This document shows positions 14,712 to 57,325 of a DNA stretch of 64,000 nt, in pieces. Source of the DNA: Salinispira sp. (GTDB lineage: Bacteria; Spirochaetota; Spirochaetia; DSM-27196; Salinispiraceae); contig CBDDDG010000016.1 in assembly GCA_965226555.1 (NCBI GenBank), positions 1 to 64,000 on the forward strand, read 5' to 3'. How positions within the stretch are numbered: the stretch's first letter is position 1; each line of letters starts with the position of its first letter. Position numbers and translations under genes: made by a program. The notes beneath the pieces are model-generated. The model saw only the letters and a list, made by a program, of their open reading frames with translations. It did not search any database and was not told the origin of the DNA.

Positions 14712-15917
14712 TCAGATTCCCAATTTCTGCTTGAGCACATTCATTTTTGCGCTTGCATGAGGCTGGATGCTATCCAAATTTCTGAATTTTTCCAGAAGAT
14801 CAACAGCTGCCAATCGATTGTCCAGTTGTACGTAACATTCCATAAGAGGGATGTACACGCGGTAATTCTGGATATGATTTTTCAGCAGGTTCTCAAGAGA
14901 CTGTGTTGCTTCAAGGTATTCTTCACAATAGATATGCACATTTGCAAGACCAAGAACCGCGTAAATATCATACTTTATATCAAGCGCTTTTTCATAATAC
15001 TCCCTGGCTTTTTCAAATTTCCGCTGCTGACAGTAGGCATCGCCCGCTCGCGTGAGAATGATTTTGTTCTGCGGATTTTCCTCTAAAATGCGGTTCCAGT
15101 ATATGAGGCTCTTTTCAAGGACATGCATTCCCCTGAAACAATCCGCGAGCCCAAAGAGCGCGTAGAAATTATTTTTTTCCCTTTCCAGCGCCTCTTCAAA
15201 ATATGCGCTGCCTTGTTCAAATGACTTCTGCTTTCGATAACAGTTTCCAATACTTGTGAGAACACGAATGTCAGGTTGGGAATTCTGCTCGCGGTATATT
15301 TTATGCCAATATTCGAGAGATCTCACATAGTTATGAAGATGATAATAGAGGTGTCCGAGACCGGTAAGCGCATAGGCATTTTGCGGTTCAATTTCGAGAA
15401 CCTGCGCATAGAGTTTTTCAGCCTGCCTGACATTTCTGACTTTTTGATAGGCATCGGCAACCCTCGTGAGTACGGTAACATTCCGGCTATCATATTTCAG
15501 ATATTTTTCCCAAACATCAATTGCACGGGAAAATTGATGTTGCTGTCTGTAGGCATCGGCAAGACCGAAGAGCGCGTAATTGTTATGCGGATGAAATTGC
15601 AGGCAGTGTTCATAATAGTTGATGGCTTCATCAAACCGTAACTTTTTACGGCATGCGTCTCCAATTCCAACAAGCGCGTAATGATTATTGGGTTCAATAT
15701 CCAGAATTTCCATGAAGGAATTAATAGCCGCAGTTAACTCACCTTTTTTGAGATAGCGATACCCCATTCGGGAAATTTCAGCCAGTTTTTTTTGCTCACT
15801 ATCCTGTTGATCATATTCGGTATTTTCAACGGAAGATTGATCATTGCTTTCTGCTAAGATATCTTGATTCATGTGCTCAGCATTCTTTTTATTAAATTTA
15901 AAGTCAAAAGCAGTCAT
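14712..15917 (-). CDS. Tetratricopeptide repeat protein
   Basis: Multiple TPRs (YALVGIGDAC, YALFGLADAY, YALTGLGHLY). Confidence 0.88.
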   Translation of the reverse strand: MTAFDFKFNKKNAEHMNQDILAESNDQSSVENTEYDQQDSEQKKLAEISRMGYRYLKKGELTAAINSFMEILDIEPNNHYALVGIGDACRKKLRFDEAINYYEHCLQFHPHNNYALFGLADAYRQQHQFSRAIDVWEKYLKYDSRNVTVLTRVADAYQKVRNVRQAEKLYAQVLEIEPQNAYALTGLGHLYYHLHNYVRSLEYWHKIYREQNSQPDIRVLTSIGNCYRKQKSFEQGSAYFEEALEREKNNFYALFGLADCFRGMHVLEKSLIYWNRILEENPQNKIILTRAGDAYCQQRKFEKAREYYEKALDIKYDIYAVLGLANVHIYCEEYLEATQSLENLLKNHIQNYRVYIPLMECYVQLDNRLAAVDLLEKFRNLDSIQPHASAKMNVLKQKLGI

Positions 15918-16037: not shown

Positions 16038-16367
16038 TCAGTTTTTTAGCCACTCACGGATAACATGCGCCATGCTCTTAATCATACCGTTTTTTTTTCT
16101 GTCATCGGGCGCAATTATATACATGCGAAGAGCCGAAAGAAAATCGTTGCTCTTATAGTAGTAGTCGCCAACACGGACTAATCCGTCAGTATAATGCGTG
16201 GTCATAAAAATTTTCTTTGCCTGTTCAATGTCTCCCGTACTGAATAATTCATTGCCCCTGCGGATAAGGGCAGCCCGTTGCGAACTTTCAATTACGGGCG
16301 TCTCCGGCTTATGTGTTCGGATAAGACCCGGATTATGAAATTTGTCCGCGGGTATGATCATTCTCAC
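16038..16367 (-). CDS. Hypothetical protein (TPR-like)
   Basis: 109-aa ORF coupled to hisB; LIRRGNELF...AKKIF...DGLVRVGDYY. Confidence 0.65.
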   Translation of the reverse strand: MRMIIPADKFHNPGLIRTHKPETPVIESSQRAALIRRGNELFSTGDIEQAKKIFMTTHYTDGLVRVGDYYYKSNDFLSALRMYIIAPDDRKKNGMIKSMAHVIREWLKN

Positions 16368-25181: not shown

Positions 25182-26682
25182 TTCCCGCCATCATGAGACC
25201 AACCTCATTTTCATCAGTTTCCCGTGCAAGAACTTCTCCGACCTTGCTGCCGCTATTAATGACAATAATACGGTCTGAGAGATCAAGCACCTCATCAAGT
25301 TCAAGACTCACCAGAAGAACCGCCTTTCGGCTATCCCTCTGTTCAATGAGACGTTTGTGAATGTATTCAATAGAACCGACATCGAGCCCCCTTGTGGGCT
25401 GCACGGCAATAAGCACCTCGGGATCGTGACTCACTTCCCTCCCGACAATTGCCTTCTGCTGGTTGCCCCCTGAAAGCTTGCGCGCCAGAGAAACAGCGCC
25501 CTTGCCCGAGCGCACATCGAAGTCCTTTATGAGCTTTTCGGCGTGCCTGCGAATTGCATCAAACTTCAAAAAGCCGCGCGATGAAAAAGCCGAACCTGCA
25601 TGATTTTCAAGAATGAAATTTTCTTCAATAGTGTAGTCGAGAATAAGACCGCGTTTTTGCCGGTCGGCGGGAATGTGAGCGATTCCCGCATCAAAACGTT
25701 CTTTAATTGAGAAGCCGGTAATGTTTCTGCCCTTCAGCCGGATGGAACCCGATTCCATATTCCGCAGACCCGTAATAGCTTCCACAAGTTCCTGCTGTCC
25801 GTTTCCATCGACTCCGGCAATTCCCAGAATTTCACCAGAGCGGAGGTCAAAATTGAAACTTTTTACTGCATCTTCGCCGCGGTTGCCCCTTACCACAAGA
25901 TCTTCAACAGAGAGAACAACATCGCCAAAGGCATCATTACCCTTTTCCACATGAAAGGAGACCTCACGCCCAACCATCATTTCAGCCATTTCTTTTTCAC
26001 TTGTCTTTGCGACATCGACAGTGCCAATGAGTTTGCCGCGGCGGATAATACTGCAGCGGTCGGCGGCTTCCTTTATCTCCTTGAGTTTGTGGGTAATGAG
26101 GATGATGGATTTTCCTTCATTGAGGAGATTCCGCATGATCTTCATGAGCTCATGAATCTCCTGGGGTGTGAGAACTGCGGTCGGTTCATCGAAAATGAGA
26201 ATATCGGCATTGCGGTAAAGCATTTTCAGAATTTCCACCCGCTGCTGCATACCGACCGAGATATCTTCAATTTTTTCTTCAGGATTAACATTCAAACCAT
26301 AATGAGACGACAGGGCTTCAATTTTTTTTGCGGCGCCCCTGCGGTCCACGACATCCTTCGCCATAGGTTCCATGCCGAGAATGATGTTCTCAGTTACCGT
26401 GAAATTATGAACAAGTTTGAAATGTTGATGCACCATGCCAATGCCGAGATGGCTTGCCTGAGTGGGGTTCTGTATTTTAACTTCCTGACCGCGTATGAAG
26501 ATGTTGCCGCCGTCGGGCTGATAAAGACCGAAGAGGATATTCATGAGCGTGGACTTACCCGCTCCGTTCTCCCCGAGAAGAGCAAGAACCTCTCCCTCGT
26601 GCACCGAAATGGAGACATTGTCGTTGGCGACAATTCCCGGAAACTCTTTACGAATGTTACGCATCTCAATAATCGGATTCAT
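25165..26682 (-). CDS. Nucleoside/sugar ABC transporter ATP-binding protein (two ABC domains)
   Basis: GENGAGKST, DEPT, LSGGNQQK, QPTRGLDVG. Confidence 0.93.
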   Translation of the reverse strand: MNPIIEMRNIRKEFPGIVANDNVSISVHEGEVLALLGENGAGKSTLMNILFGLYQPDGGNIFIRGQEVKIQNPTQASHLGIGMVHQHFKLVHNFTVTENIILGMEPMAKDVVDRRGAAKKIEALSSHYGLNVNPEEKIEDISVGMQQRVEILKMLYRNADILIFDEPTAVLTPQEIHELMKIMRNLLNEGKSIILITHKLKEIKEAADRCSIIRRGKLIGTVDVAKTSEKEMAEMMVGREVSFHVEKGNDAFGDVVLSVEDLVVRGNRGEDAVKSFNFDLRSGEILGIAGVDGNGQQELVEAITGLRNMESGSIRLKGRNITGFSIKERFDAGIAHIPADRQKRGLILDYTIEENFILENHAGSAFSSRGFLKFDAIRRHAEKLIKDFDVRSGKGAVSLARKLSGGNQQKAIVGREVSHDPEVLIAVQPTRGLDVGSIEYIHKRLIEQRDSRKAVLLVSLELDEVLDLSDRIIVINSGSKVGEVLARETDENEVGLMMAGIENAG

Positions 26683-26712
26683 AGAACCTCGCTCAAAATT
26701 TCAATATATTTA

Positions 26713-26760: not shown

Positions 26761-26787
26761 TGGGATATAAACCTTTGAGCTGACCCC
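26761..26787. repeat. 27-bp direct repeat (also 33494-33520; 19-bp inverted core at 63727-63745)
   Basis: TGGGATATAAACCTTTGAGCTGACCCC exact at both sites. Confidence 0.9.
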
Positions 26788-26798
26788 ACTTTGACCTA

Positions 26799-26999
26799 TT
26801 ATGCGATCATTTCTTCCGAGTCCCTCCATCGCTCAAGCGTCGGTCGTGTGAGCCGTTGCTCCATTATGATCGGCTTAAGCCGGAGAATATCACTATCCAC
26901 ATTGGTATTCCGCTGCCTCAAAAGCTCCAGCGGAGTCCCTTTGCGGTAGGTGTTGAACCTCCGGTAATTGAAAACTATCTGATACTCCTCGGCTTCCTT
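26799..26999 (-). mobile_element. Probable integrase-core transposase C-terminal remnant, fused to the duplicated ABC ATPase start
   Basis: EAEEYQIVFNYRRFNTYRKGTPLELL resembles the YN..RP....TP C-terminus of DDE integrase cores. Confidence 0.45.
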
Positions 27000-27110
27000 A
27001 AGAACCTCTTCCTCGTGCACCGAAATGGAGACATTGTCGTTGGCGATAATTCCCGGAAACTCTTTACGAATGTTACGCATCTCAATAATCGGATTCATAG
27101 AACCTCACTC
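27000..27110 (-). repeat. 111-bp duplicate of the ABC ATPase 5' end (other copy 26584-26694)
   Basis: 3 mismatches; encodes MNPIIEMRNIRKEFPGIIANDNVSISVHE. Confidence 0.95.
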
Positions 27111-27609
27111 CAGTTTCAAATTGTTCCTCTATTTTTCTAATTTTATCAATTAAAAATTTCAGATAAAACCCCTCAATAGATCTAACTTGAACATACTTTT
27201 CATCTACAAAATAATCATACATTTCTCTTGGTTCAATATCGTTACGATACCAAAATTTTAACGACTCATTGTTTGCTTCTTGCTTTTTTAGATAGGCGAC
27301 TATTTCTTCCAATGTGCTCTCTCGTTGAAAAGTATCTTTTGTCTTGCGATTTCTAAAGACTGATCGTACTTCATGCCTACTTGATACTTTTTTTAAAAAA
27401 AACGAGTCGATACAGTTTATCTTTTGCCTATGTTTATGTAAAACAACACCACGTTTATTCTCATAACAATCTATGCAATAATTTACCGATTTATAGGGAA
27501 AATAATTTGCTTCGTATATTTTTCCACAATTATCGCAAGCTCTTTCATCTCCTTCTTTAAGCCTATCAATTTTACTGTGTAATTTTTTAAGTATTACTGT
27601 ATTTTGAAG
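27082..27609 (-). CDS. Start-less reading frame (C4 Zn finger plus WYL-like tail), probable frameshift extension of the upstream helicase
   Basis: Open from 27657 to 27082 with no ATG/GTG/TTG before 27312; CDNC...CIDC; joins the helicase frame at the A9 run 27610-27618. Confidence 0.65.
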   Translation of the reverse strand, partial: LQNTVILKKLHSKIDRLKEGDERACDNCGKIYEANYFPYKSVNYCIDCYENKRGVVLHKHRQKINCIDSFFLKKVSSRHEVRSVFRNRKTKDTFQRESTLEEIVAYLKKQEANNESLKFWYRNDIEPREMYDYFVDEKYVQVRSIEGFYLKFLIDKIRKIEEQFETGVRFYESDY

Positions 27610-30600
27610 TTTTTTTTTACCAAATTTTGCAATCTGTTGTCTAAAATTTCTATTGGATCATTCCCAATATTAAAACGGTTTATTCGTAAAAATTTGTAGC
27701 CATATCCTTCCAAAATTTTCTGTCTATAAATATCATCAGCTTTCATATAATCCTTATAATTAGACTTGTTCACATCCTCCCTATCGACGAAGTGTTCTTT
27801 GAAGCCGTCATATTCTATGACAATTTTTAGTCCGTTAAAAATTATCAAAAAATCAACCCTATAGTTTGGATGATTATAATCTTTATTTAATTGCTTGAGG
27901 TATTTTCCAAGTTCAAATTGAGGAATAAATTCAATTGTGTCTTTATTTTCTTTGTAAAATTTTGTGTTATAAAAAATTTTCTCAACCTCATATTCCATTT
28001 TTGAATCAAGTTTTTTAATGATTCTTTTCTTGCCAATTTCTAATTCATTTTGGTAATGTAACATTGCATTTTTTATTTCCCCTTGAAATTCTTCTATTGG
28101 CTTGCTCAATACAAAATGGATACATTCTTTAGCACGACTAAAACCAACATTCATTCTTTGAGACCGAAGTGTTCCATCTATTTCATCGCTGATTGAAGAA
28201 AAGTCTTTCAAAAATATCCAGCTCAAACGATCTTTTTCTTTTGTTGCCACCATTGAATAAAAAATATAATCCCTTTCTTCTCCTTGGCAGGTGTCAAAAG
28301 TCATTATTTTTAATTTACATTTTTCAAAAAACCAATCTCTTTCAGGTAATTTATTAATTCTGTCAAAAAGTAAAGTTACCTGTTCTCTATGGGGAGTAAT
28401 GATTCCAAGACTTTGTTCAATTTCTTTTTCTTTAAATTCTTGAAGTTTTTTAATTATATGCCTCATTTCCAGTTCATTTGTATTTTTATTTGCATCAAAT
28501 TTTCCGTCATGGTCTATGATTTCAATTTTAATTATATCTTCAATTTGCTTTCCTCTAATTTTCATGCATTGAAGAGTTTTGTCGTAAAAATATTTATCTG
28601 AATAAGAAATTATTTCTGGATAACATCGGAAATGTTTTTTTAGCTGACATTCATAATTTCTAATAAATCTTGAAAATTTAAGAATAGAATTTTTAATATC
28701 AAAATTTTCTTTTACTTTTGTAAGCCAACCATTTTTATCAAGTCCGTTAAGTCTTTCTTCTAAAAAAGTATCTTGCACCCTTTTTCGTAGTTCCTGATTT
28801 GTTACCTTGCTTGCATGATTTGCTTTCACATTTGAAAACTGCTTATCGTCTCCCAATACTATTATCTGTGTCCCTCGCACAAGTGCAGGCAATGCCTGTG
28901 CAATGCTGACCTGTGAAGCCTCATCAATTATAATTAAATCAAATAAATTTTTCTCTAACGGAATGAATTCTGCATAATCCCTAATCCCTGCCAAAATACA
29001 AGGAAATGCTTTTTTCAGATTTTTAAAGAGGGCTTGGGGGAACTTTTGTTTTTTTCGTACAATGTTTTTTAATGTTCCCACTTCGTTAGCATAATTTTGA
29101 GTATATTCAATAATGCTTTTATCTAAGAAATATGTCATTCTTGCAGTCGTTAAATTTTCAATCTCGCTTATTGAATTAGAAAATCTATCTTCTGGATAAG
29201 TGTTAAATTGTTTTTCTAATTTTGACTGTACATTTTTATGCTTCAAATATTCTTCAATTTCTTCGTTGGTATGGTCTGACAAAATACTAGATGGTTGATT
29301 TATATTTTCAGCCGATATGTTTAATTTAATTTTCTCTGAAAACTCAGGATATTTTTCTTTTATGTCCAAAATATAATCAACATCGCTTTTAAATGTTTTT
29401 ATTTTTTCAATTATCTTTATGAGATTGTTCAATGACTTGCTTATGTCGTTTGAGAAAAAAACACTGCAATTTTCATTACTATCTATTTTTATATCATCTG
29501 GAATTATATGATATAATTCATTAACAACATGATCAATATTATTTATTTGCTTAAATACTTCTATGTTCCAACTCACCTGCTGAATTTCATATTCTAAATC
29601 ACCTATATCAGAAATTGTTGATTCAATTAACTCTTTCTCTGTTACAAGCTTTTTTTGTAGTTTTTTGATTGCTTTATAGTCCGACAAGTATTCATTATTA
29701 TTGTTGTTTAGCAAGTCTATTAAAATTCTAAAAATTGAATATATGGAGGACTCTTCAGTTGTATATTCATTTGGAATTTTTTCATAAACAAAAGCAAACA
29801 AATCAGAAACTTGTTGTATATCTTTTATATACCTTTGAGGTTTTTCTATTCCAAAATAACTAAATGTCTTTTTTAGATTTCTGGTAGCCGTTTCAATTTT
29901 TTTTGTTTTAAATAAGAATCCTATAATGGGCAATTTAATTGCGTTTAGATTATTAACATATGCCCTAAGTTCGGTGATTGCTTTTTCAGAGTTTGTGTTT
30001 TTAGGAATTTCAAAATGAGAAAAAATATTGTAATTACCAAATGCTTCTCCTAAAAATTTTTCTGATTCTGAAAATAGATCGAAAGAAGTATCCACGATTC
30101 CTGAACGCCGCATTAAAACCCCGAGATTCAATTCGTTTGCTGGTTTAAATAATTTTGAAATGGCAGGCATGTTTTTATACAAAATACCTAATTCAGACAG
30201 TGTTGTTTTTATAGAATTTAATGAATGGAATATTTTTTCATCATACGGAGCATGATTATCAAATTCCTGAATTAAAATATTTATATCAATATTTTTATTT
30301 TTTTCAGCAAACTCTATTTTTGAATCACTTAAAATTCCCAAAAAACTCTGGTATTCATTCAAAAGTTCATAGTTCGTATCGGTTAATAATTTTTTATCAA
30401 TTTTTAAACCATTGTCATGTTTAGAAAGTTTCTGAATTCCTTTCTTGATTCGTAGCAAATTAATAGCATATTCCTCTGTGGAATTAAGCCAATCAATAGT
30501 TGAAAACCTATCAAAATTTTGAAAATACAATTCAATATCTTTGATGTCTATATTTTCAAAATAGTTTATATTTTCTGTTATATTTTTCTTTAACGTGCGG

Positions 30601-32327
30601 AGCAAGTTTTTTCTTTGTTCATCAATTTTACTTTTTTCGTGCTTATAAGCATTATAATGCTCCGTAATTTTTTGAATAGTTTGACCCTGAACAATTTTGT
30701 AAAATTTATTTCCGGTTTTTCCAAGTCTTAAAATAGGATTTTGAAAATCATCCTTATAATCCTCATGCCTTATTTTATTTAGTGTGCTAGAAATTTTTTC
30801 TTCAACAACATCAAGTGCTTCTTTTTTATCTGACAAAACCAGTACCGATTTCTCTTCCACTAATGCTTTGCAAATAATTGCCGTAATTGTATGACTCTTT
30901 CCGGTTCCAGGAGGTCCTTCCAATATCATAAAATTACAATCTGGTTTTTGTAGAGCCATCAAAACTTGTTTTTGCTCATCGTTAAGAGGAATAGGGCTTT
31001 CAAATATAAGTTTTTTAGGAATATCTTTGTCATACCATTCATTTTCAACTTCTTCCATGAAAGATTTTGGATTTTCTTCAATAAAACCATTTAGCAAAGA
31101 AGAAAAATTTTCAAGAACATCCCCATCATCATTCAATATTTCTTCATAATCGTTAATAAGTGCTTCATCTGATTTATCGAATAAAAATAGGTAACCTTTG
31201 TTAGAAAATGAGGTTACGAGATTCATTCCCTTTTGCAATTTTGGATTTTGCAAATCTATATTTTTGTTTAACTCAAAAAAGTTTTCTATTTTTCTGATGT
31301 AATTTTTCAAAATAGAATAAAAGTTTTCTTCTCCAGTTATATATAAAATTCTGTCAGATTCTCCAGCCAAAGTTGATTTCTTTCCTGTTTGCACATTAAA
31401 TTCTTGCACAACAAAATCAATAGCCTTTGTGTTTACAAAAACACGTTTTTCAAATTGAAAAACAAATTTATCTTCCCCTTTAATAATTGTTATTGGTATA
31501 TAAAAAACAGGAAATTTTTCATTACCTAAAGAAAGTTCGTAGAAGTATAAATATATTTCTGTTTTATCTATCAATTTATTATTTCTGTACAATTGGTAAA
31601 TATCAGAAAAGGCATCTCCAATAACATAATTTTCAAAAAATTTGATCAGATTATTTTTAATCTCAGTCAATTTAATAGTATTCTGTAAAGTTTCTTGCAA
31701 ATTGAAATTTTTTTTATCTTGAAAGAAGTTTTGTAAAATTTCAGTATATTTATTTTCAAACACAGCAAAAACAGAGTCTGTAATATCTGTTTCTATTTGA
31801 AATTTACTATTCTCATCAGCGATATCTAAATTTTCAAGTGGTTTATCAAGGTCATTGAGTAATGAAATAATTAGATTTCTTGAGAATATATTTTTTGTTT
31901 TTTCGTTTGATTCCTCCAAAAATTTATCATATTCTTTTGCATACAAAAGTTTATTCTCTTCAACCATGTCTTCAATAAAATTGAAAACATTATCGAGATC
32001 GTTTTGGGAAGATTTTTTGATTCTCGCTTCAATTAAATTAAATAGATTTTGGGGGAGATTTTTGACATATTCACCTTTCTTGATTTGCAAACTTTCTTTT
32101 TTGAAACCACTATTCAAAAGTGAGAATAAGGATTTTTTAAGTTTTGGATATTTTTCAAGGTCAATGCCAACCTGTAATCCGTTTTGAGTTTTTTGAATGG
32201 CGTTTCTTTTGGGAATTCTCCGTTTCTTAAAGTCAGTTTCCAAGAAATTCATAAAATATTTAGCAACCTCTTTCACAAAAGAAGCTGTTTCAATATTTTC
32301 TGATTTTGTAATTTCTTTTTTCGCCAT
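27594..32327 (-). CDS. Upf1/Dna2-like SF1 helicase with a long helical insert and a C-terminal Vsr/DUF559-like endonuclease
   Basis: GPPGTGKS, DEASQ, GDDKQ, CQGEE, NVGFSRAK; C-terminal PQF..YRVDF..IEYDG..H; strongly AT-rich. Confidence 0.85.
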   Translation of the reverse strand: MAKKEITKSENIETASFVKEVAKYFMNFLETDFKKRRIPKRNAIQKTQNGLQVGIDLEKYPKLKKSLFSLLNSGFKKESLQIKKGEYVKNLPQNLFNLIEARIKKSSQNDLDNVFNFIEDMVEENKLLYAKEYDKFLEESNEKTKNIFSRNLIISLLNDLDKPLENLDIADENSKFQIETDITDSVFAVFENKYTEILQNFFQDKKNFNLQETLQNTIKLTEIKNNLIKFFENYVIGDAFSDIYQLYRNNKLIDKTEIYLYFYELSLGNEKFPVFYIPITIIKGEDKFVFQFEKRVFVNTKAIDFVVQEFNVQTGKKSTLAGESDRILYITGEENFYSILKNYIRKIENFFELNKNIDLQNPKLQKGMNLVTSFSNKGYLFLFDKSDEALINDYEEILNDDGDVLENFSSLLNGFIEENPKSFMEEVENEWYDKDIPKKLIFESPIPLNDEQKQVLMALQKPDCNFMILEGPPGTGKSHTITAIICKALVEEKSVLVLSDKKEALDVVEEKISSTLNKIRHEDYKDDFQNPILRLGKTGNKFYKIVQGQTIQKITEHYNAYKHEKSKIDEQRKNLLRTLKKNITENINYFENIDIKDIELYFQNFDRFSTIDWLNSTEEYAINLLRIKKGIQKLSKHDNGLKIDKKLLTDTNYELLNEYQSFLGILSDSKIEFAEKNKNIDINILIQEFDNHAPYDEKIFHSLNSIKTTLSELGILYKNMPAISKLFKPANELNLGVLMRRSGIVDTSFDLFSESEKFLGEAFGNYNIFSHFEIPKNTNSEKAITELRAYVNNLNAIKLPIIGFLFKTKKIETATRNLKKTFSYFGIEKPQRYIKDIQQVSDLFAFVYEKIPNEYTTEESSIYSIFRILIDLLNNNNNEYLSDYKAIKKLQKKLVTEKELIESTISDIGDLEYEIQQVSWNIEVFKQINNIDHVVNELYHIIPDDIKIDSNENCSVFFSNDISKSLNNLIKIIEKIKTFKSDVDYILDIKEKYPEFSEKIKLNISAENINQPSSILSDHTNEEIEEYLKHKNVQSKLEKQFNTYPEDRFSNSISEIENLTTARMTYFLDKSIIEYTQNYANEVGTLKNIVRKKQKFPQALFKNLKKAFPCILAGIRDYAEFIPLEKNLFDLIIIDEASQVSIAQALPALVRGTQIIVLGDDKQFSNVKANHASKVTNQELRKRVQDTFLEERLNGLDKNGWLTKVKENFDIKNSILKFSRFIRNYECQLKKHFRCYPEIISYSDKYFYDKTLQCMKIRGKQIEDIIKIEIIDHDGKFDANKNTNELEMRHIIKKLQEFKEKEIEQSLGIITPHREQVTLLFDRINKLPERDWFFEKCKLKIMTFDTCQGEERDYIFYSMVATKEKDRLSWIFLKDFSSISDEIDGTLRSQRMNVGFSRAKECIHFVLSKPIEEFQGEIKNAMLHYQNELEIGKKRIIKKLDSKMEYEVEKIFYNTKFYKENKDTIEFIPQFELGKYLKQLNKDYNHPNYRVDFLIIFNGLKIVIEYDGFKEHFVDREDVNKSNYKDYMKADDIYRQKILEGYGYKFLRINRFNIGNDPIEILDNRLQNLVKKNFKIQ

Positions 32328-32628
32328 AATTATCTTATGATCCTGTCGGATTTAAGTAAATATTCATCAAAGTATGTAAAATTCATCCGTTAATTTAACA
32401 AAAAATTTACTTATATCACTCAAAAAATCTAATTCCCCACATCAGAATACAGTAAAAACATCTGTTTACGTTCACTTAGCCCTCAAAATTACAAATAATC
32501 CCATATCTTGAACACATTTTTTTACAAAATAAAGTGGATGCTGGGTAAGTCCGACAGGATCTTATTAAATCCTCAATAGAAACACCCGAGGCTTTAGCAA
32601 TTTATGCCATAACCAAAACGGACGGTTT

Positions 32629-32790
32629 TGTTCTTGCTTCGAAAATTCGGACACTTAACTAAGCAACACAACAGGATTTTCCTGCTGTTTTCAAAGCGTA
32701 ATCCATCGGACTCATATAGTCAAGAGATGAATGCATCCTCTCTCGGTTATACCAGTTGATGTATTCAAAAACTATCTTCCGCGCCTGTTC
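32629..32790 (-). mobile_element. IS3-family transposase 3' remnant with right end
   Basis: [28 protein letters not shown], followed by GTGTCCGAATTTTCGAAGCAAGAACA ending in CA. Confidence 0.8.
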
Positions 32791-32823
32791 GCCCAAGTGA
32801 CTGTTATTATGACTGGTCTTTAA

Positions 32824-33480
32824 TTAAAACTGCTGCGGTTGAAAGTCTTCGGCGTTGGTAATGGAGGCGCTGGAACCCGTGGCTTTAATAACAAAGAGTT
32901 TCTTTTTTCGAGCATAGGCATCGGACGATGCAACAACATTAATGTAGGCAACACCCCCGTAGATAATATCGTTCCGAAAGCGGGGCATGGCTGTTCTAAA
33001 TAGTTTCATGCTCTCAAGAAAATGATCCACATCGCTCACTCTGAGAGTGGTTTTAACTTCAACTACCACCGTTTCATTGCCGTTGCAGGCAATAATATCA
33101 AACTCAGCCATCGGTTTTCCCTGAACGTCTTTATATTCTCTTCTGGTCAAAGTTTTGTTTACGGAAATTCCTCTCGTATTGAGCAAATTTACCAAATCGC
33201 CCTCCACCAAGCTCTCTATGAGCTTGCCCCACTGGGAGGTAAAGAGTTCATTGAGTTCTTTGAGCCTGCGGTCGGTTTTCTTCATTTGACGGTCGGTTTT
33301 CTTTATTTGGAGCGCAGTTTCCTGCACTAGGCGGTCGGTTTCCTGCACTAGGCGGTCGGTTTCCTTCTCTCGACGCTTAGCCCGAAGATCAGACTCTTTC
33401 ATCTGGCGAGCGGTCTCTTTCAGGGTTACTGCCGTTTCTGCCATCATGTCTTTAATTTCTTGTACGGTCATTTCTGCCAT
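32824..33480 (-). CDS. Coiled-coil-repeat PD-(D/E)XK nuclease-like protein (DUF3782-like)
   Basis: ETDRLVQ/KTDRQMK heptads, WGKLIE, EFDII..VVVEVK motif; AAGGAG RBS before ATG 33480. Confidence 0.75.
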   Translation of the reverse strand: MAEMTVQEIKDMMAETAVTLKETARQMKESDLRAKRREKETDRLVQETDRLVQETALQIKKTDRQMKKTDRRLKELNELFTSQWGKLIESLVEGDLVNLLNTRGISVNKTLTRREYKDVQGKPMAEFDIIACNGNETVVVEVKTTLRVSDVDHFLESMKLFRTAMPRFRNDIIYGGVAYINVVASSDAYARKKKLFVIKATGSSASITNAEDFQPQQF

Positions 33481-33541
33481 TGTCTTTCTCCTTTGGGATA
33501 TAAACCTTTGAGCTGACCCCTCAGCCGCTGGGGCTATGAAA

Positions 33542-35608
33542 CTAATACCATGATGGATAATTAGTTGTATCCTCAGTACCAACCAGCGTATTCGCATCCA
33601 AGCCGGAATCCAAAAACATATCTGTTGTGGTTCCGGTATAATCGCCAGCGGCATCAAGCGTCCCGGCAGCAAGCGACCAATGATCCTTCCACTCCTCAAG
33701 ATCTTGATCGAATGTGTATGCTTTATTGAACATAGTGTTCATAGTCGTTACCGAGCTGACATCCCAGCCGGAGATATTCTGATCGAATTCGACTGCTTGC
33801 TGGAACATACTTTCCATAGTCGTTACCTTACTGACATCCCAACCCGAGATATTCTGTTTGAATTCGTTTGCTTGATTAAACATAAATGCCATAGTCGTTA
33901 CCTTACTGACATCCCAAGCAGAGATATCGCTATTGAATACGCCTGCGGAAGCGAAGATCCCGTACATAGTCGTTACCGAACTGACATCCCAATTTGAGAT
34001 ATCCTGATTGAATGAGGTTGCTGTAAAAAACACAGCGCTCATATCCGTTACCGAGCTGACATCCCAGTTGGAAAGGCCGCCATTGAAATCGAACGCTCCA
34101 TAAAACATACTGTTTATAGTCGTTACCGCGCTAGTATCCCAACCGGAGATATCGCCATTGAAATGGGTTGCTCCCTTGAACACCTCGGACATGTCCGTTA
34201 TTGCCGTGGTAATAATGTAGTTGAGATCGGCAGTTTGTCCCCAGGTTGATATCCCCGCAGCTATCGCGGCATCCAGTTCATCGTTACCGCCATCGGTATT
34301 AGCAGCGCCAGCGGTTCCATCGCCATCAGCAGGACTCACGGTAACATAAAACTTTTCGGTAAACGTGTTTTCTCCTCCGGTTGCGCCGGATACCACATAT
34401 GTTCCGGCAGTTGTATCTGCGGAAACGGTAATAACTCCGGTACTTGCATCAACTGTCGGGGAGGTAACGATAACTCCTGCGACCGGGGTAGTAGCCGTAG
34501 TCAAAGTAACGGTGAGGCCCTCATCGGCAATTTGGGTATCAATGGCAGCCGAAAGAATGACGGAGGCTGCCGTACCAAAGGAAACCCGTGTCGCAGAAGG
34601 CAGCAGTCTTCTCGTTGCAGGCGCAGACCAGCCGCCATTACCCACCGCGTTGACGGCGCGCACCCGTACATCGTAGGTGGTACCGTTTGTCAGCCCGGTA
34701 ATGGTGGAGCTCGCGGCAGTAATGTCGGAAGCGGTAGTCACATCCAGCCAACTTCCTTCCGGGTCGGTAACTTCGCGATATTGCAGTTCATAGCGAATGA
34801 TTGCGCTGCCGTTGTCATTGGGCGCTGTCCATGCTCCCTCAAATTCGGTGTCTCCGGCTGTGAGCGTGAGAGTTGTCGGCGCATCGGGAACGGCAATAGG
34901 GGTTGTGGTGTCAGTCGCTGGGTTACCATTGCCCTGCTCATTGACAGCGTAGACCCGCACCTCGTACTCGGTGCCGTTTGTCAGGGATGTGATGATGGAC
35001 TCCAGAGGGTTTGCATCCGCAGCAATAGAAACGGGATTTTCCCACGCGCGTGCTCCAACTTCGCGATATTGCCGTTCATAGCGGGTAATGGCGCTGCCGC
35101 CAGTATCGGTCGGCGCAGCCCATGTTGCGGTAATTTGCATATCGTCCGCTGCGAGCGTAAAATTATTCGGCTTCGTGGGAACGGTAATAGGTATTGCTCC
35201 ATCGCTCAATTCCGACCAGTCGCCTGCGCCCGCGCTGTTCCCTGCGCGCACCTGCGCGACGTATTCGGTGCCGTTTGTCAGGTTCGTGATGATGGTCTCT
35301 GTGGCTGGCGCGGGGATTTCGATAATATCCGACCAGCTGATCCCGCCGTCATCGCTATGGCGAAGTTCATACGCGGTAATGTCGCTGCCGCCAGTATCGG
35401 TCGGCGGAGTCCAGTTAACAGTTAGTTGCTCATTCCCCGCTTCAAGGCTTGGGGCAGCCATTTGGGCTGGCGGGGTCGAATCACCCCCCATATTGGGTTT
35501 CGGCCTTGGATCGGGGTCCATGTCCATCATAGGACATCCGGCAATTAATGCAATAAAAAGCGCGCAAAATATAAAAAGGGTTCCCCCTCTCGATAACGTA
35601 GTTCGCAT
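33542..35608 (-). CDS. Surface lipoprotein, 3 FN3 domains plus BspA/DUF285 repeats
   Basis: Lipobox LIAGC; three W..P..GGS.IT.Y...LTNGT.Y...VRA.N FN3 units; 25-aa FNxDISxWDVSxVTTM repeats. Confidence 0.88.
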   Translation of the reverse strand: MRTTLSRGGTLFIFCALFIALIAGCPMMDMDPDPRPKPNMGGDSTPPAQMAAPSLEAGNEQLTVNWTPPTDTGGSDITAYELRHSDDGGISWSDIIEIPAPATETIITNLTNGTEYVAQVRAGNSAGAGDWSELSDGAIPITVPTKPNNFTLAADDMQITATWAAPTDTGGSAITRYERQYREVGARAWENPVSIAADANPLESIITSLTNGTEYEVRVYAVNEQGNGNPATDTTTPIAVPDAPTTLTLTAGDTEFEGAWTAPNDNGSAIIRYELQYREVTDPEGSWLDVTTASDITAASSTITGLTNGTTYDVRVRAVNAVGNGGWSAPATRRLLPSATRVSFGTAASVILSAAIDTQIADEGLTVTLTTATTPVAGVIVTSPTVDASTGVITVSADTTAGTYVVSGATGGENTFTEKFYVTVSPADGDGTAGAANTDGGNDELDAAIAAGISTWGQTADLNYIITTAITDMSEVFKGATHFNGDISGWDTSAVTTINSMFYGAFDFNGGLSNWDVSSVTDMSAVFFTATSFNQDISNWDVSSVTTMYGIFASAGVFNSDISAWDVSKVTTMAFMFNQANEFKQNISGWDVSKVTTMESMFQQAVEFDQNISGWDVSSVTTMNTMFNKAYTFDQDLEEWKDHWSLAAGTLDAAGDYTGTTTDMFLDSGLDANTLVGTEDTTNYPSWY

Positions 35609-38706: not shown

Positions 38707-40641
38707 TTACATGCTCTCAAGAAAGGGAATGTTGAGCAGGAAGAAACCTTCCTTTAACACTTCCCGAACTGCCCAGGCAATATACAGGCGGGCATCTCGA
38801 AGTTCGGGGCGGGGGCAGTTAAGAATTGGATAATCATGATAGAAACGGGAAAAGGTTTTTCCAAGTTCGTAAAGGGCAGATGTGATAATTGACGGATCGT
38901 ATTTTCTGCCGGACTGTTCGACAATATCCGGAAAACGGGCAATGGTCTTTATGAGTTCCCACTCAATATCAGCGTTCAGAAGCTCCCAGTTGATCGTCTC
39001 GGGGGGCGGCAGCTCGGAGCGGTGCTTGCGGTATTTGCGGAAAATACTGGAAATACGGGCGCCCACATATTGCAGATAGGGGCCGCTGTTGCCGGTGAAT
39101 GAAATGGAATCCTCCTGTCGGAATATCATGTCCTTCGATGGAGAAACCTGGAGCAGGTAGAAGTTTACCGCAGCCAGCGCAACCGATTCGGCAATATGTT
39201 CAGGATCGGGTGGCGGCGCGGGGTTAGATGGCGGCTCGGGGGTTGCGGGGTCGGGGTCGGTTGGCGGCGCGGGGTTGGATGGCGGCACGGGGTCGGCTGG
39301 CAGCACGGGATCGGTTGGCGGCACGGGATCGGTTGGCGGCACGGCGGTAGGGGTTTTTTCGCGGATTTGGGCGCGGGCGAGGCGGTGGAGGGTGTTGAGG
39401 AGGTCATCGGCATCGACAACGGTGCCCTCGCGGCTTTTCATTCTGCCATCGGGCAGGTTCACCATGCCGTAGGAAACATGGCGGAGGTTCTGCGCCCAGG
39501 CGAGGCCGAGCATTCCCAGTACATGAAAAAGTACCTGAAAATGATAGTTTTGTTCGTTTGCCACCACATAGAACATACGGTCAAAGGGCCAATCTCCATG
39601 CCGGGCAATGGCAGTGCCAATGTCCTGAGTAATGTAGACACTGGTTCCATCGCTGCGGAGCAGCACCTTGTCATCAAGTCCGATATCGCTGAGATCGACC
39701 CGAATTGTACCCTTCTCATCTTTGTAAAACAGCCCCTGCTCCAGACCGCGCAGCACACATTCCCGACCAACGGCATATGTATCACTTTCATAATACAGTG
39801 TGTCGAAACGTATCCCGATGCGCCGATATGTTTCAAGCAAGCCCTCCATGGCCCAGGCATTCATGGTTTTCCAGAGTTTCACGGTTTCCTCATCGCCTGC
39901 TTCCCAGCGCCTGAGCATATCCTGCGCCCGCTGTTCTGCTTCGGGATCTTTCCGAGCTATTTCATTGAACGTGATATAGTATGTACCGACAAAATGATCG
40001 GGCTTCATTCCCGCATCTTCAGGGCTTCGGCCTCCCCCTTCTTCCTGATATGCCAGCATTGACTTGCAGATGTGGATGCCTCGGTCATTAATAAGGTTCA
40101 CTGTATGAACTTCAGCTCCGTTTGCTCTGAGAATGCGGGCCAGCGACTCACCGAGGGCATTGTTTCGCAGATGCCCGAGATGAAGTGGTTTGTTGGTATT
40201 CGGAGAAGAAAATTCAATAATTATTTTTTCACCCGCATAATTGCTGTTTGCGCCGTATGCAGGCTGCTTTTCTGAGTGTGTTTCTCCTGCTGATGCATGC
40301 TCTCCCTGCGGAGCTCCCCGCATTTCCATGAGAGTTTTTATCACACGGTCGGTGTATGCAGCGCGTTTATAGTGAATGTTGATATAGGGACCTGCTGCAG
40401 CGGCATCAATGTTTCGGAAAACAAGATGCGGAAGCAGCTTCTCTGCTATTATTTTGGGAGACATTCGGAGGACTTTTGCAAAAGGGAACATCGGAAAGGA
40501 GATATCGCCCAATTCAGCTCGGGGGGGTATTTCAATCTGCAGCCGTATTTCTGAAAGATCAGGCTGAAGTCCCTCTTCCAGCGCAAGTGCTCCTACTGCT
40601 TCAAGAATTTTTCCAGAAAGCATTTCTCGAAATGTTTTCAC
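38707..40641 (-). CDS. argS: Arginine--tRNA ligase
   Basis: EFSSPNTNKPLHLGHLRN, MKSREG, GPYLQY. Confidence 0.95.
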   Translation of the reverse strand: MKTFREMLSGKILEAVGALALEEGLQPDLSEIRLQIEIPPRAELGDISFPMFPFAKVLRMSPKIIAEKLLPHLVFRNIDAAAAGPYINIHYKRAAYTDRVIKTLMEMRGAPQGEHASAGETHSEKQPAYGANSNYAGEKIIIEFSSPNTNKPLHLGHLRNNALGESLARILRANGAEVHTVNLINDRGIHICKSMLAYQEEGGGRSPEDAGMKPDHFVGTYYITFNEIARKDPEAEQRAQDMLRRWEAGDEETVKLWKTMNAWAMEGLLETYRRIGIRFDTLYYESDTYAVGRECVLRGLEQGLFYKDEKGTIRVDLSDIGLDDKVLLRSDGTSVYITQDIGTAIARHGDWPFDRMFYVVANEQNYHFQVLFHVLGMLGLAWAQNLRHVSYGMVNLPDGRMKSREGTVVDADDLLNTLHRLARAQIREKTPTAVPPTDPVPPTDPVLPADPVPPSNPAPPTDPDPATPEPPSNPAPPPDPEHIAESVALAAVNFYLLQVSPSKDMIFRQEDSISFTGNSGPYLQYVGARISSIFRKYRKHRSELPPPETINWELLNADIEWELIKTIARFPDIVEQSGRKYDPSIITSALYELGKTFSRFYHDYPILNCPRPELRDARLYIAWAVREVLKEGFFLLNIPFLESM

Positions 40642-57156: not shown

Positions 57157-57325
57157 AATTAGTCTCCAAAATTCTATTTTTTATCGACAACACGCAACAT
57201 TTGTATTGTATCGCTATGCTCCCGTATTACTGTAACTGCCGCTTTTATAGTTTTGAATGACATGTTTGCTTTAAATTGCATTTTTTTGTAAAAAAATTTT
57301 TTTTAACAAATTTTCCCTTTCAGTC

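Follow-up and report, generated by a model that had tools for sequence, protein, structure and literature searches.

We analysed a window of 64,000 nucleotides of Salinispira sp. (positions 1 to 64,000 of contig CBDDDG010000016.1, assembly GCA_965226555.1), whose minus strand carries a large gene for a predicted helicase-nuclease. The gene ends in a run of nine adenines (A9), behind which a further coding frame, here called the tail, lies in the -1 frame. The features of the gene and its tail are as follows.

27594..32327, minus strand: gene of the short, zero-frame product of 1577 aa, an SF1 (Upf1/AAA_11-AAA_12-type) helicase with a C-terminal Vsr/DUF559/MTES_1575-like nuclease (from Pfam and motifs)
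27610..27618, minus strand: A9 run, the predicted slippage site, with the heptamers A_AAA_AAA and A_AAA_AAC inside it (from the run and the junctions of homologs)
27082..27618, minus strand: -1 frame tail, 175 aa past the lysines, with a helix, a CxxC-x-CxxC finger, a linker and an Sm/WYL-type barrel (from homology to in-frame C-termini, the ratio of nonsynonymous to synonymous substitution rates (dN/dS) and AlphaFold)
27391..27612, minus strand: N-terminal module of the tail, a helix and a CxxC...FPYK...CxxC putative zinc finger (from cysteine spacing; predicted local distance difference test score (pLDDT) 85-95 over most of it)
27127..27345, minus strand: C-terminal helix and five-strand Sm/Hfq/WYL-type barrel (model pLDDT 91, structure and profile comparison)

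The 1577-aa open reading frame (ORF) ends GTA AAA AAA AAC TTC AAA ATA CAG TAA, and the A9 at 27610-27618 is the only one within the helicase gene. An open -1 frame spans 27657 to 27082 (191 codons, 178 of them from the run's first A onward), and its earliest canonical start in the window is a TTG at 27312. A first-pass annotation of this DNA had described the run and the open frame in the same way, and a rereading of the sequence and its frames bore it out. The predicted long product comprises approximately 1748 aa compared with 1577 aa for the short one. The gene contains 21 in-phase XXXYYYZ sites; the long -1 frame is opened only by the two within the A9 run, and the remaining 19 lead to -1 extensions of 2-18 aa. 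Two public contigs that had been assembled separately (X1 and X2) were identical to 27077-32766, with no letter differences and no gaps; they are contigs, not raw reads, of one sample, possibly the source's own. The host genome contains 308 runs of eight A's, 40 of nine and none longer, and further minus-strand A8 or A9 runs of the window lie at 15786-15793, 16090-16098 (its second A9), 26322-26329 and 57297-57304. When synonymous codons of the window gene were shuffled, an A9 arose at this site by chance with P = 0.16. An A9 at this site is unremarkable alone, and the evidence is its conservation across homologs.

Among 1601 protein homologs, the best 120 were parsed for their ending: 86 were short, all ending just after KK[KN], 28 were long in frame and 6 were unparsed. 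The in-frame tails were clearly homologous to the -1 frame of the window, with similarity starting right at the lysines. We collected 100 loci, which with the window made 101, and 97 junctions were readable (unreadable: L015, L083, L100 and L101; L numbers denote loci). The tail was in the -1 frame in 47 junctions, in frame in 50 and in the +1 frame in none. The -1 class had A9 in 43 loci and A10 in 4, never a shorter run; the in-frame class had at most eight A's in 47 loci and A9 or A10 in 3. After collapsing, 40 -1 loci were left at 95% identity and 24 at 85%. In-frame members that have the tail type of the window and still hold A9 or A10 are L006, L011, L074 and L105. Two draws of 401 genomes, made within the classes to which two carriers belong, yielded 13 matches, 3 of which were already in the locus set. 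The ten new matches comprised one -1 member with A9, one in-frame member with A10, six in-frame members without the run and two distant ones without a tail. The distant relatives L107 and L114 end right after the nuclease; the tail-less junction of L107 has an in-phase A_AAA_AAC with just six A's and no long -1 frame. L011, L013, L014 and L105 read through TGA and have open frames under table 25; L011 and L105 are in frame yet have A10.

The first-pass annotation had regarded the tail as an extension added to the enzyme. The survey reverses this view: the tail is the normal C-terminus of the family, in frame in 50 of the 97 loci, and therefore the slip site creates the short form. The conservation in homologs of a poly-A run with a CxxC tail in the -1 frame, which that annotation had proposed to look for, was found. 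Both explanations that it had named as refuting ones fail: an assembly error at the run is ruled out by the conserved junction in homologs and the identical contigs, and a one-off frameshift mutation by homolog conservation and the purifying selection on the tail described below. Two points temper the survey. The 80 metagenome loci are the best 80 of 514 and not a random sample. Further, the -1 class may have a single origin and the loci are kin, so that the counts overstate independence. A quick tree of 69 of 77 representatives (eight were omitted because their upstream sequence was too little or interrupted) assigned the -1 members to a single large group, inside which in-frame A9/A10 members are nested, and to a group of L089, L091 and L095. 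The latter three have another zinc-finger type and lie near the in-frame clade, yet their junctions have an A9 and a -1 tail whose end is of WYL type, and they would represent either a second origin or a retained slip site.

The tail bears marks of selection, and the run is conserved. Between the window and 12 close homologs, dN/dS was 0.07-0.31 over the first 60 tail codons and 0.04-0.31 over the last domain (one value saturated), and 0.04-0.09 over the nuclease; other pairs gave 0.01-0.62. Judged by these ratios, the tail is under purifying selection and is presumably translated as a part of the enzyme. Across 40 non-redundant -1 loci, the first canonical start of the -1 frame fell anywhere from codon 8 to codon 177 or was absent, with no conserved position. 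All nine A's were invariant in these 40 loci, and both lysine codons were AAA in each. The codon before the lysines ended in A in 40 of 40 loci versus 14.1 expected from codon usage (GTA 35, CTA 4, TTA 1), and this final A persisted through Val-to-Leu changes. The third codon of the lysine run was AAC in 20 and AAG in 18 of the 40; it was AAC, AAG or AAA, never AAT. The clade without the run is also without the triple lysine, and therefore the protein does not require it. The whole nine A's are kept, beyond the need of one heptamer.

Elsewhere in the same gene bodies, A8 was tolerated (60 seen versus 73.9 expected) and A9 or longer was avoided (1 seen versus 38.6 expected), in counts in which homologous sites are counted repeatedly. 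This boundary agrees with the threshold of nine A's for efficient polymerase slippage (PMC5009743, cited here, like PMC3711429, PMC4066793, PMC6260861, PMC5574713 and PMC11662680 below, for the accessible parts of its text). The junction has two features of dnaX-type genes with programmed transcriptional slippage, a conserved run of at least nine A's and a selected downstream frame without a start of its own.

In the AlphaFold model of the tail (mean pLDDT 84), a disordered linker separates the helix and cysteine finger from a domain made of a helix and a barrel. The helix and finger module, in the form of the window or a related FRD form, is present in nearly all readable family members; we infer zinc binding by the CxxC finger from the cysteine spacing. 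When the barrel was compared with known structures by VIA-align, it scored Z 6.6 with DriD (8tp8; root-mean-square deviation 4.0, 67 aligned), 5.8 with PafBC and 5.6 with Hfq. Designed SH3 barrels outscored all three, and the best natural matches were WYL proteins. The best Foldseek match of the barrel was DriD (7tzv, E 0.026), with none at E 0.001 or better. By hhalign, the barrel matched sister tails that are Pfam-WYL-positive with a probability of 82 (E 1e-5); the sister tails of other types that pass Pfam WYL are those of L002, L007 and L089. Pfam WYL (PF13280) did not match the window barrel and matched one of 17 same-type domains, at E 0.028.

The first-pass annotation had called the tail WYL-like by eye. 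The fold was upheld, given that the predicted model has the helix and Sm-type beta-barrel of WYL domains and the DriD and hhalign scores agree; membership of the Pfam family was not, as the barrel stays under the Pfam WYL cut-off and is as near to Hfq/Sm, its Z scores for DriD and Hfq being tied within 1, which counts against a specific WYL assignment. We regard a WYL-type fold of the last tail domain, as modelled, with fair confidence. The domain resembles the WYL domains of DriD, PafBC, CapW and BrxR in its helix and Sm-type barrel, and its sister tails carry Pfam WYL. It differs in sitting on an enzyme, not on a winged helix-turn-helix regulator, and in being without WCX and, as judged by eye, the WYL/RWHVR motif. 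An RWHVR-type arginine pocket that binds single-stranded DNA is described for CapW (PMC11662680); no such motif was evident by eye, and the residues conserved are only a late Arg and several Tyr. Pfam, a PDB sequence-profile search and an ESM Atlas search (best 0.82) with the tail gave no useful match. Matches of the tail to PADLOC REase_II (E 0.0005) and to an NCBIfam nicotinate phosphoribosyltransferase (21 of 663 bits) were treated as noise.

Tails vary over the family and include zinc ribbons, winged helices, true WYL domains and topoisomerase-type ribbons. The loci hint that WYL-type tails go with the run, but we do not claim such a link: two or three independent contrasts are available, with exceptions, namely L008 and L036, which have the run and a topoisomerase-type ribbon, and L013, whose end looks WYL-like by eye although the run is absent. 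The -1 tail of L008 (L008:667-1380) has the FPYK finger followed by the FRD finger of the in-frame clade and a topoisomerase-type ribbon, a mixture that suggests tail recombination.

The core of the 1577-aa protein is a helicase with Pfam matches above cut-off (AAA_12, E 8e-22; AAA_11, E 3e-15). Walker A lies at residue 471, Walker B at 1135, motif VI at 1391 and the nuclease D/E/H residues at 1490-1512. The nuclease domain (residues 1482-1568) matches MTES_1575 (E 0.003) and DUF559 (E 0.03), both under the Pfam cut-off; its D/E/H residues are invariant, although the Pfam match is weak. ESM Atlas neighbours of residues 1-440 are DUF4011 clusters at 0.87, which we treat at lead level only, and Pfam gave no DUF4011 match in this N-terminus. 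Hhe (NCBIfam NF042953, PADLOC PDLC02194) and ProA (NF058533) are single-gene helicase-nuclease anti-phage proteins. The window protein has the Hhe-type architecture, a big SF1 helicase with a C-terminal Vsr-like nuclease; a DUF4011-like N-terminus would be a further likeness, at the lead level given above. Partial PADLOC/NCBIfam matches were to PDC-S37, MkoA/C, Hhe and ProA. We know of no recoded tail in Hhe or ProA. A second, distant SF1 helicase-nuclease-like gene lies in the same genome (G000:C10:417667-419717; 25% identity over residues 1100-1557).

Taken together, the site is real and conserved, a probable recoding site in an uncharacterised and probably defensive helicase-nuclease family. 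We lean modestly towards the reading that slippage on the A9 gives short and long forms of a likely anti-phage or anti-mobile-DNA helicase-nuclease. RNA polymerase would slip on the A9 and add an A in a share of transcripts, and one gene would thereby yield the short 1577-aa enzyme and a long enzyme of approximately 1748 aa, whose tail would add the putative zinc finger and the predicted WYL-type domain. The helicase would track foreign nucleic acid and the Vsr-like domain would cut it. The tail would bind nucleic acid and target or license the enzyme, and the A9 run would set the fraction of subunits that carry it. We infer as likely that both products matter, that the slip takes place during transcription and that the role is the one outlined.

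The copy in the window is embedded in foreign DNA. The helicase gene is 28% GC compared with 47% GC for the 2.98-Mb host genome, the family was not found in the 40 relatives of the host that were searched, and its named carriers are mostly Patescibacteria-group genomes with few others. The window gene is evidently a horizontally transferred copy, whose closest relatives are mostly Patescibacteria-type. Similarity to homologous loci spans approximately 32629 to 27121 (right end 27121-27131), and the island and its edges comprise the following features, in which IS denotes an insertion sequence.

26761..27008, minus strand: 3' end remnant of a multicopy IS transposase element of approximately 1.25 kb (94-96% identical to eight copies that are mutually 98-100% identical)
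27000..27121, minus strand: partial duplicate (approximately 95%) of the 5' region of the downstream ATP-binding cassette (ABC) transporter ATPase gene (26584-26705), the right edge of the foreign DNA (sequence repeat)
32339..32561, no strand assigned: element resembling a miniature inverted-repeat transposable element (MITE), with inverted repeats at its ends and a short duplication of the target (from the inverted repeat; two similar elements on contig C10)
32562..32629, minus strand: remnant of an XRE/HTH_3 regulator with an in-frame stop and its 5' end cut (84.5% identical to L017:354-424)
32629..32786, minus strand: remnant of the 3' end of another multicopy IS transposase, presumably IS3-like as judged by eye, at the left boundary of the foreign DNA (93% identity to eight copies that do not differ from one another)

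A 27-nt IS end occurs twice in direct orientation (26761-26787 and 33494-33520), bracketing 6.7 kb in which a PD-(D/E)XK-like gene accompanies the helicase island; the same 27-mer occurs many times in the genome. The 99-aa ORF at 26799-27098 is a chimera of approximately 30 residues of the ABC ATPase N-terminus and the C-terminal end of the IS transposase.

The best-surviving alternative, which we rate as a serious possibility somewhat short of an even chance, is that the family feature is real but the window copy is a decaying passenger that is not usefully expressed in its present host. An XRE regulator precedes the helicase in relatives (L017:220-423 upstream of the helicase is HTH_3, E 2e-17); in the window, this regulator is stopped and cut by the IS. 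The MITE-like element ends 11 nt upstream of the helicase ATG and is absent there in L017 and L019, in which the flanks are contiguous, and a search of the coding strand within 32300-32900 for sigma-70-like promoters gave none. The native tail stop after ...IRKIEE, kept in L001 and L022, is lost, and the last 13 tail residues and the stop are non-native, read from the duplicate of the ABC gene 5' region. The copy also lacks the middle zinc ribbons that its nearest relatives have. Codon comparisons also weigh against a fully active copy: the private codons of the window are 85 nonsynonymous to 128 synonymous, versus 18-31 to 65-104 in three sisters (70 to 259 pooled; Fisher p 4e-6), and its private changes at otherwise invariant columns number 57 versus 8-23 in the sisters. 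Against decay, the 4.7-kb ORF has no stop or frameshift; the flanking remnants are 4-7% diverged from active copies, and neutral drift to this level would give approximately 14-19 stops, assuming a similar age. The core motifs and the A9 are intact. Our reading is that the window copy is under relaxed, not absent, selection; its expression is uncertain because the native upstream regulator is broken.

The reading with two useful products also has to be weighed against one in which only the long protein works and the short one is waste, the run lowering the dose of a possibly toxic nuclease as in IS transposases. This would fit either slip mechanism. The helix and cysteine-finger module stands behind the nuclease in nearly every readable close member, permanently in frame in the 50 loci mentioned above, and the zero-frame residues past the run are short and unconserved. 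However, the tail-less L107 and L114 indicate that the core can exist alone, and in-frame members with A9 or A10 would still yield some short form. We treat pure dosing as possible, with the balance of our judgement against it.

A -1 shift of the ribosome at the overlapping heptamers A_AAA_AAA and A_AAA_AAC/G would give the same two products from an unchanged mRNA. The window has both A_AAA_AAA and A_AAA_AAC in phase; the shift is -1 in 47 of 47 loci and the phase of the run is fixed. One shift direction is the rule of thumb by which GeneTack assigns clusters to ribosomal frameshifting (PMC3711429), and the base following the A9 is always C or G, giving AAC and AAG, both known shifty codons; these two points speak against polymerase slippage. 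A_AAA_AAG is a classic bacterial shift site, but the A_AAA_AAC of the window is much weaker in E. coli (PMC5009743). The lack of a T after the run is itself weak evidence, given an estimated ten or so independent lineages. Further, one heptamer needs 6-7 A's, yet nine are invariant, and some in-frame members retain the run.

The stimulators that usually, although not obligatorily, accompany such shifts were sought in the same 40 loci. None had downstream structure with z below -2 in a test that left pseudoknots and distant signals outside its scope, in agreement with the first-pass annotation, which had seen no stimulatory hairpin. Shine-Dalgarno (SD)-like signals were found in 3 of 40 loci versus 8% of controls, that is, without enrichment. 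On the other side, upstream structure had z below -2 in 7 of 40 loci, the window not among them. Unstimulated heptamers shift 2-10-fold over a background of 0.055% in E. coli (PMC4066793). In an E. coli reporter, a magnesium chelatase cassette whose A9 has this phase gave 40% frameshifting, which may be transcriptional or ribosomal (PMC3711429). No host slippage was found below eight A's and no deletions on A runs, with errors mainly insertions (PMC6260861), and insertions also predominate in runs according to PMC5574713; errors of this kind would account for the -1-only pattern. As A9 is avoided elsewhere in the gene bodies and neither a 3' hairpin nor an SD signal was found, slippage by RNA polymerase seems likelier than a ribosomal shift. 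We consider the former the probable mechanism and the latter rather unlikely.

As to function, a defence role of the helicase-nuclease seems fairly probable from the distant similarity to Hhe and ProA and from the neighbours. The 75 neighbours of run-bearing loci include four serine recombinases, six DUF2779 proteins, several methylases, TaqI, BsaWI and Mrr nucleases, HamA, Panacea and XRE regulators. Two sets of observations weaken this case. The defence-model matches cover mainly the helicase core and are far under the NCBIfam cut-offs, with no full-length match to either model (ProA 149 of 1500 bits, with the best stretch at residues 1047-1403; Hhe 90 of 2000). Moreover, no partner gene is constant (clustering of 245 neighbours gave 196 clusters), many neighbours are housekeeping or unannotated, and the counts come without a background rate. 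The enzyme could instead serve DNA repair or the upkeep of mobile elements, which we judge improbable. Serine recombinases are frequent neighbours, and Vsr-type nucleases and the WYL proteins DriD and PafBC act in DNA-damage responses (PMC11662680). Against this, the spread of the family is patchy, with the 13 matches in the two draws of 401 genomes and none in the 40 host relatives, and its rapidly swapped tails and restriction-type neighbours would fit conflict systems better. Viral contigs held three in-frame members without the run and two unreadable ones, and plasmids one record at 40% identity.

Beyond the island, 32824-33480 encodes a protein with a coiled-coil repeat and a PD-(D/E)XK-like domain, with similar copies on contigs C10 and C22. 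A lipoprotein-like gene with three fibronectin III domains and DUF285 repeats (33542-35608) belongs to a very large genome-wide repeat family, and ArgS (38707-40641) has an internal proline-rich repeat insertion.

Two further explanations of the run fare poorly. Phase variation at the DNA level, in which the run would toggle the tail on and off in a population, is very improbable. L074 is one A longer than its sisters L043, L045 and L053 and is in frame, and in-frame A9/A10 members do occur. However, A8 or any other +1-frame state was seen in none of the 97 junctions, the supposed OFF state dominates (47 versus 3) with its tail intact and under purifying selection, and X1 and X2 show no length variant at the run, although contigs hide rare variants. 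That the tail is a separate small gene, translated by coupling or from a non-canonical start, is scarcely credible: gene callers list such tails as stand-alone proteins and the zero-frame stop overlaps the tail frame, but the called starts are ragged, the first canonical starts have no conserved position, the likeness to in-frame forms starts right at the lysines, and coupling would not need an invariant A9.

Slippage on the A9, the reading that we favour, has precedents in other proteins. An A9 in dnaX of Thermus thermophilus gives tau and gamma by transcriptional slippage, and dnaX genes with two ORFs joined at poly-A runs are known (PMC5009743, PMC3711429). In both cases, as known for dnaX and predicted for the helicase, nine or ten A's give a short and a long nucleoside triphosphatase from one gene, and one-ORF and two-ORF arrangements of dnaX occur (PMC3711429), as do in-frame A9/A10 members of the helicase family. 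The differences are that the proteins are unrelated, that in the helicase family the long form requires the slip in most run-bearing members and the tail is variable, and that the present case is a prediction from sequence. The frameshifted magnesium chelatase genes of GeneTack likewise have a -1 transition on a poly-A run and fused homologs (PMC3711429), but encode a metabolic enzyme. OrfA/OrfAB of IS elements resembles the helicase in being mobile and in depending on a -1 transition at an A-rich site for its full-length enzyme (PMC5009743). The order is reversed: in the helicase the catalytic domains precede the slip site and the binding modules follow. No published description of a helicase-nuclease slip site was found in searches of an open-access library, supplements and with them the GeneTack cluster tables excepted; the main texts of PMC3711429 and of the aquifer defensome paper PMC12259885 contained no 'helicase' and no 'frameshift', respectively. 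Mechanisms of this kind are known from dnaX, IS elements and magnesium chelatase, and enzymes of this kind from Hhe and ProA; their combination was not found in these searches.

Conserved bacterial recoding beyond IS elements, prfB and dnaX is rare, and a case in a defence-type enzyme was likewise not found there. The fullest version of our reading, which we offer as a speculation and consider unlikely, is a single-gene immune system mainly of ultra-small bacteria and their mobile elements: A9 slippage would maintain a fixed mix of sensor-armed and sensor-less helicase-nuclease, swappable WYL and zinc-ribbon tails would change what is sensed, and the slip rate would balance immunity against self-harm. 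Gene callers render members of the family as an enzyme without its tail plus a small orphan ORF, and therefore catalogues of defence systems would miss the real architecture. If the reading is true, slippage doses a sensor tail on a dangerous immune enzyme, and does so without a regulator.

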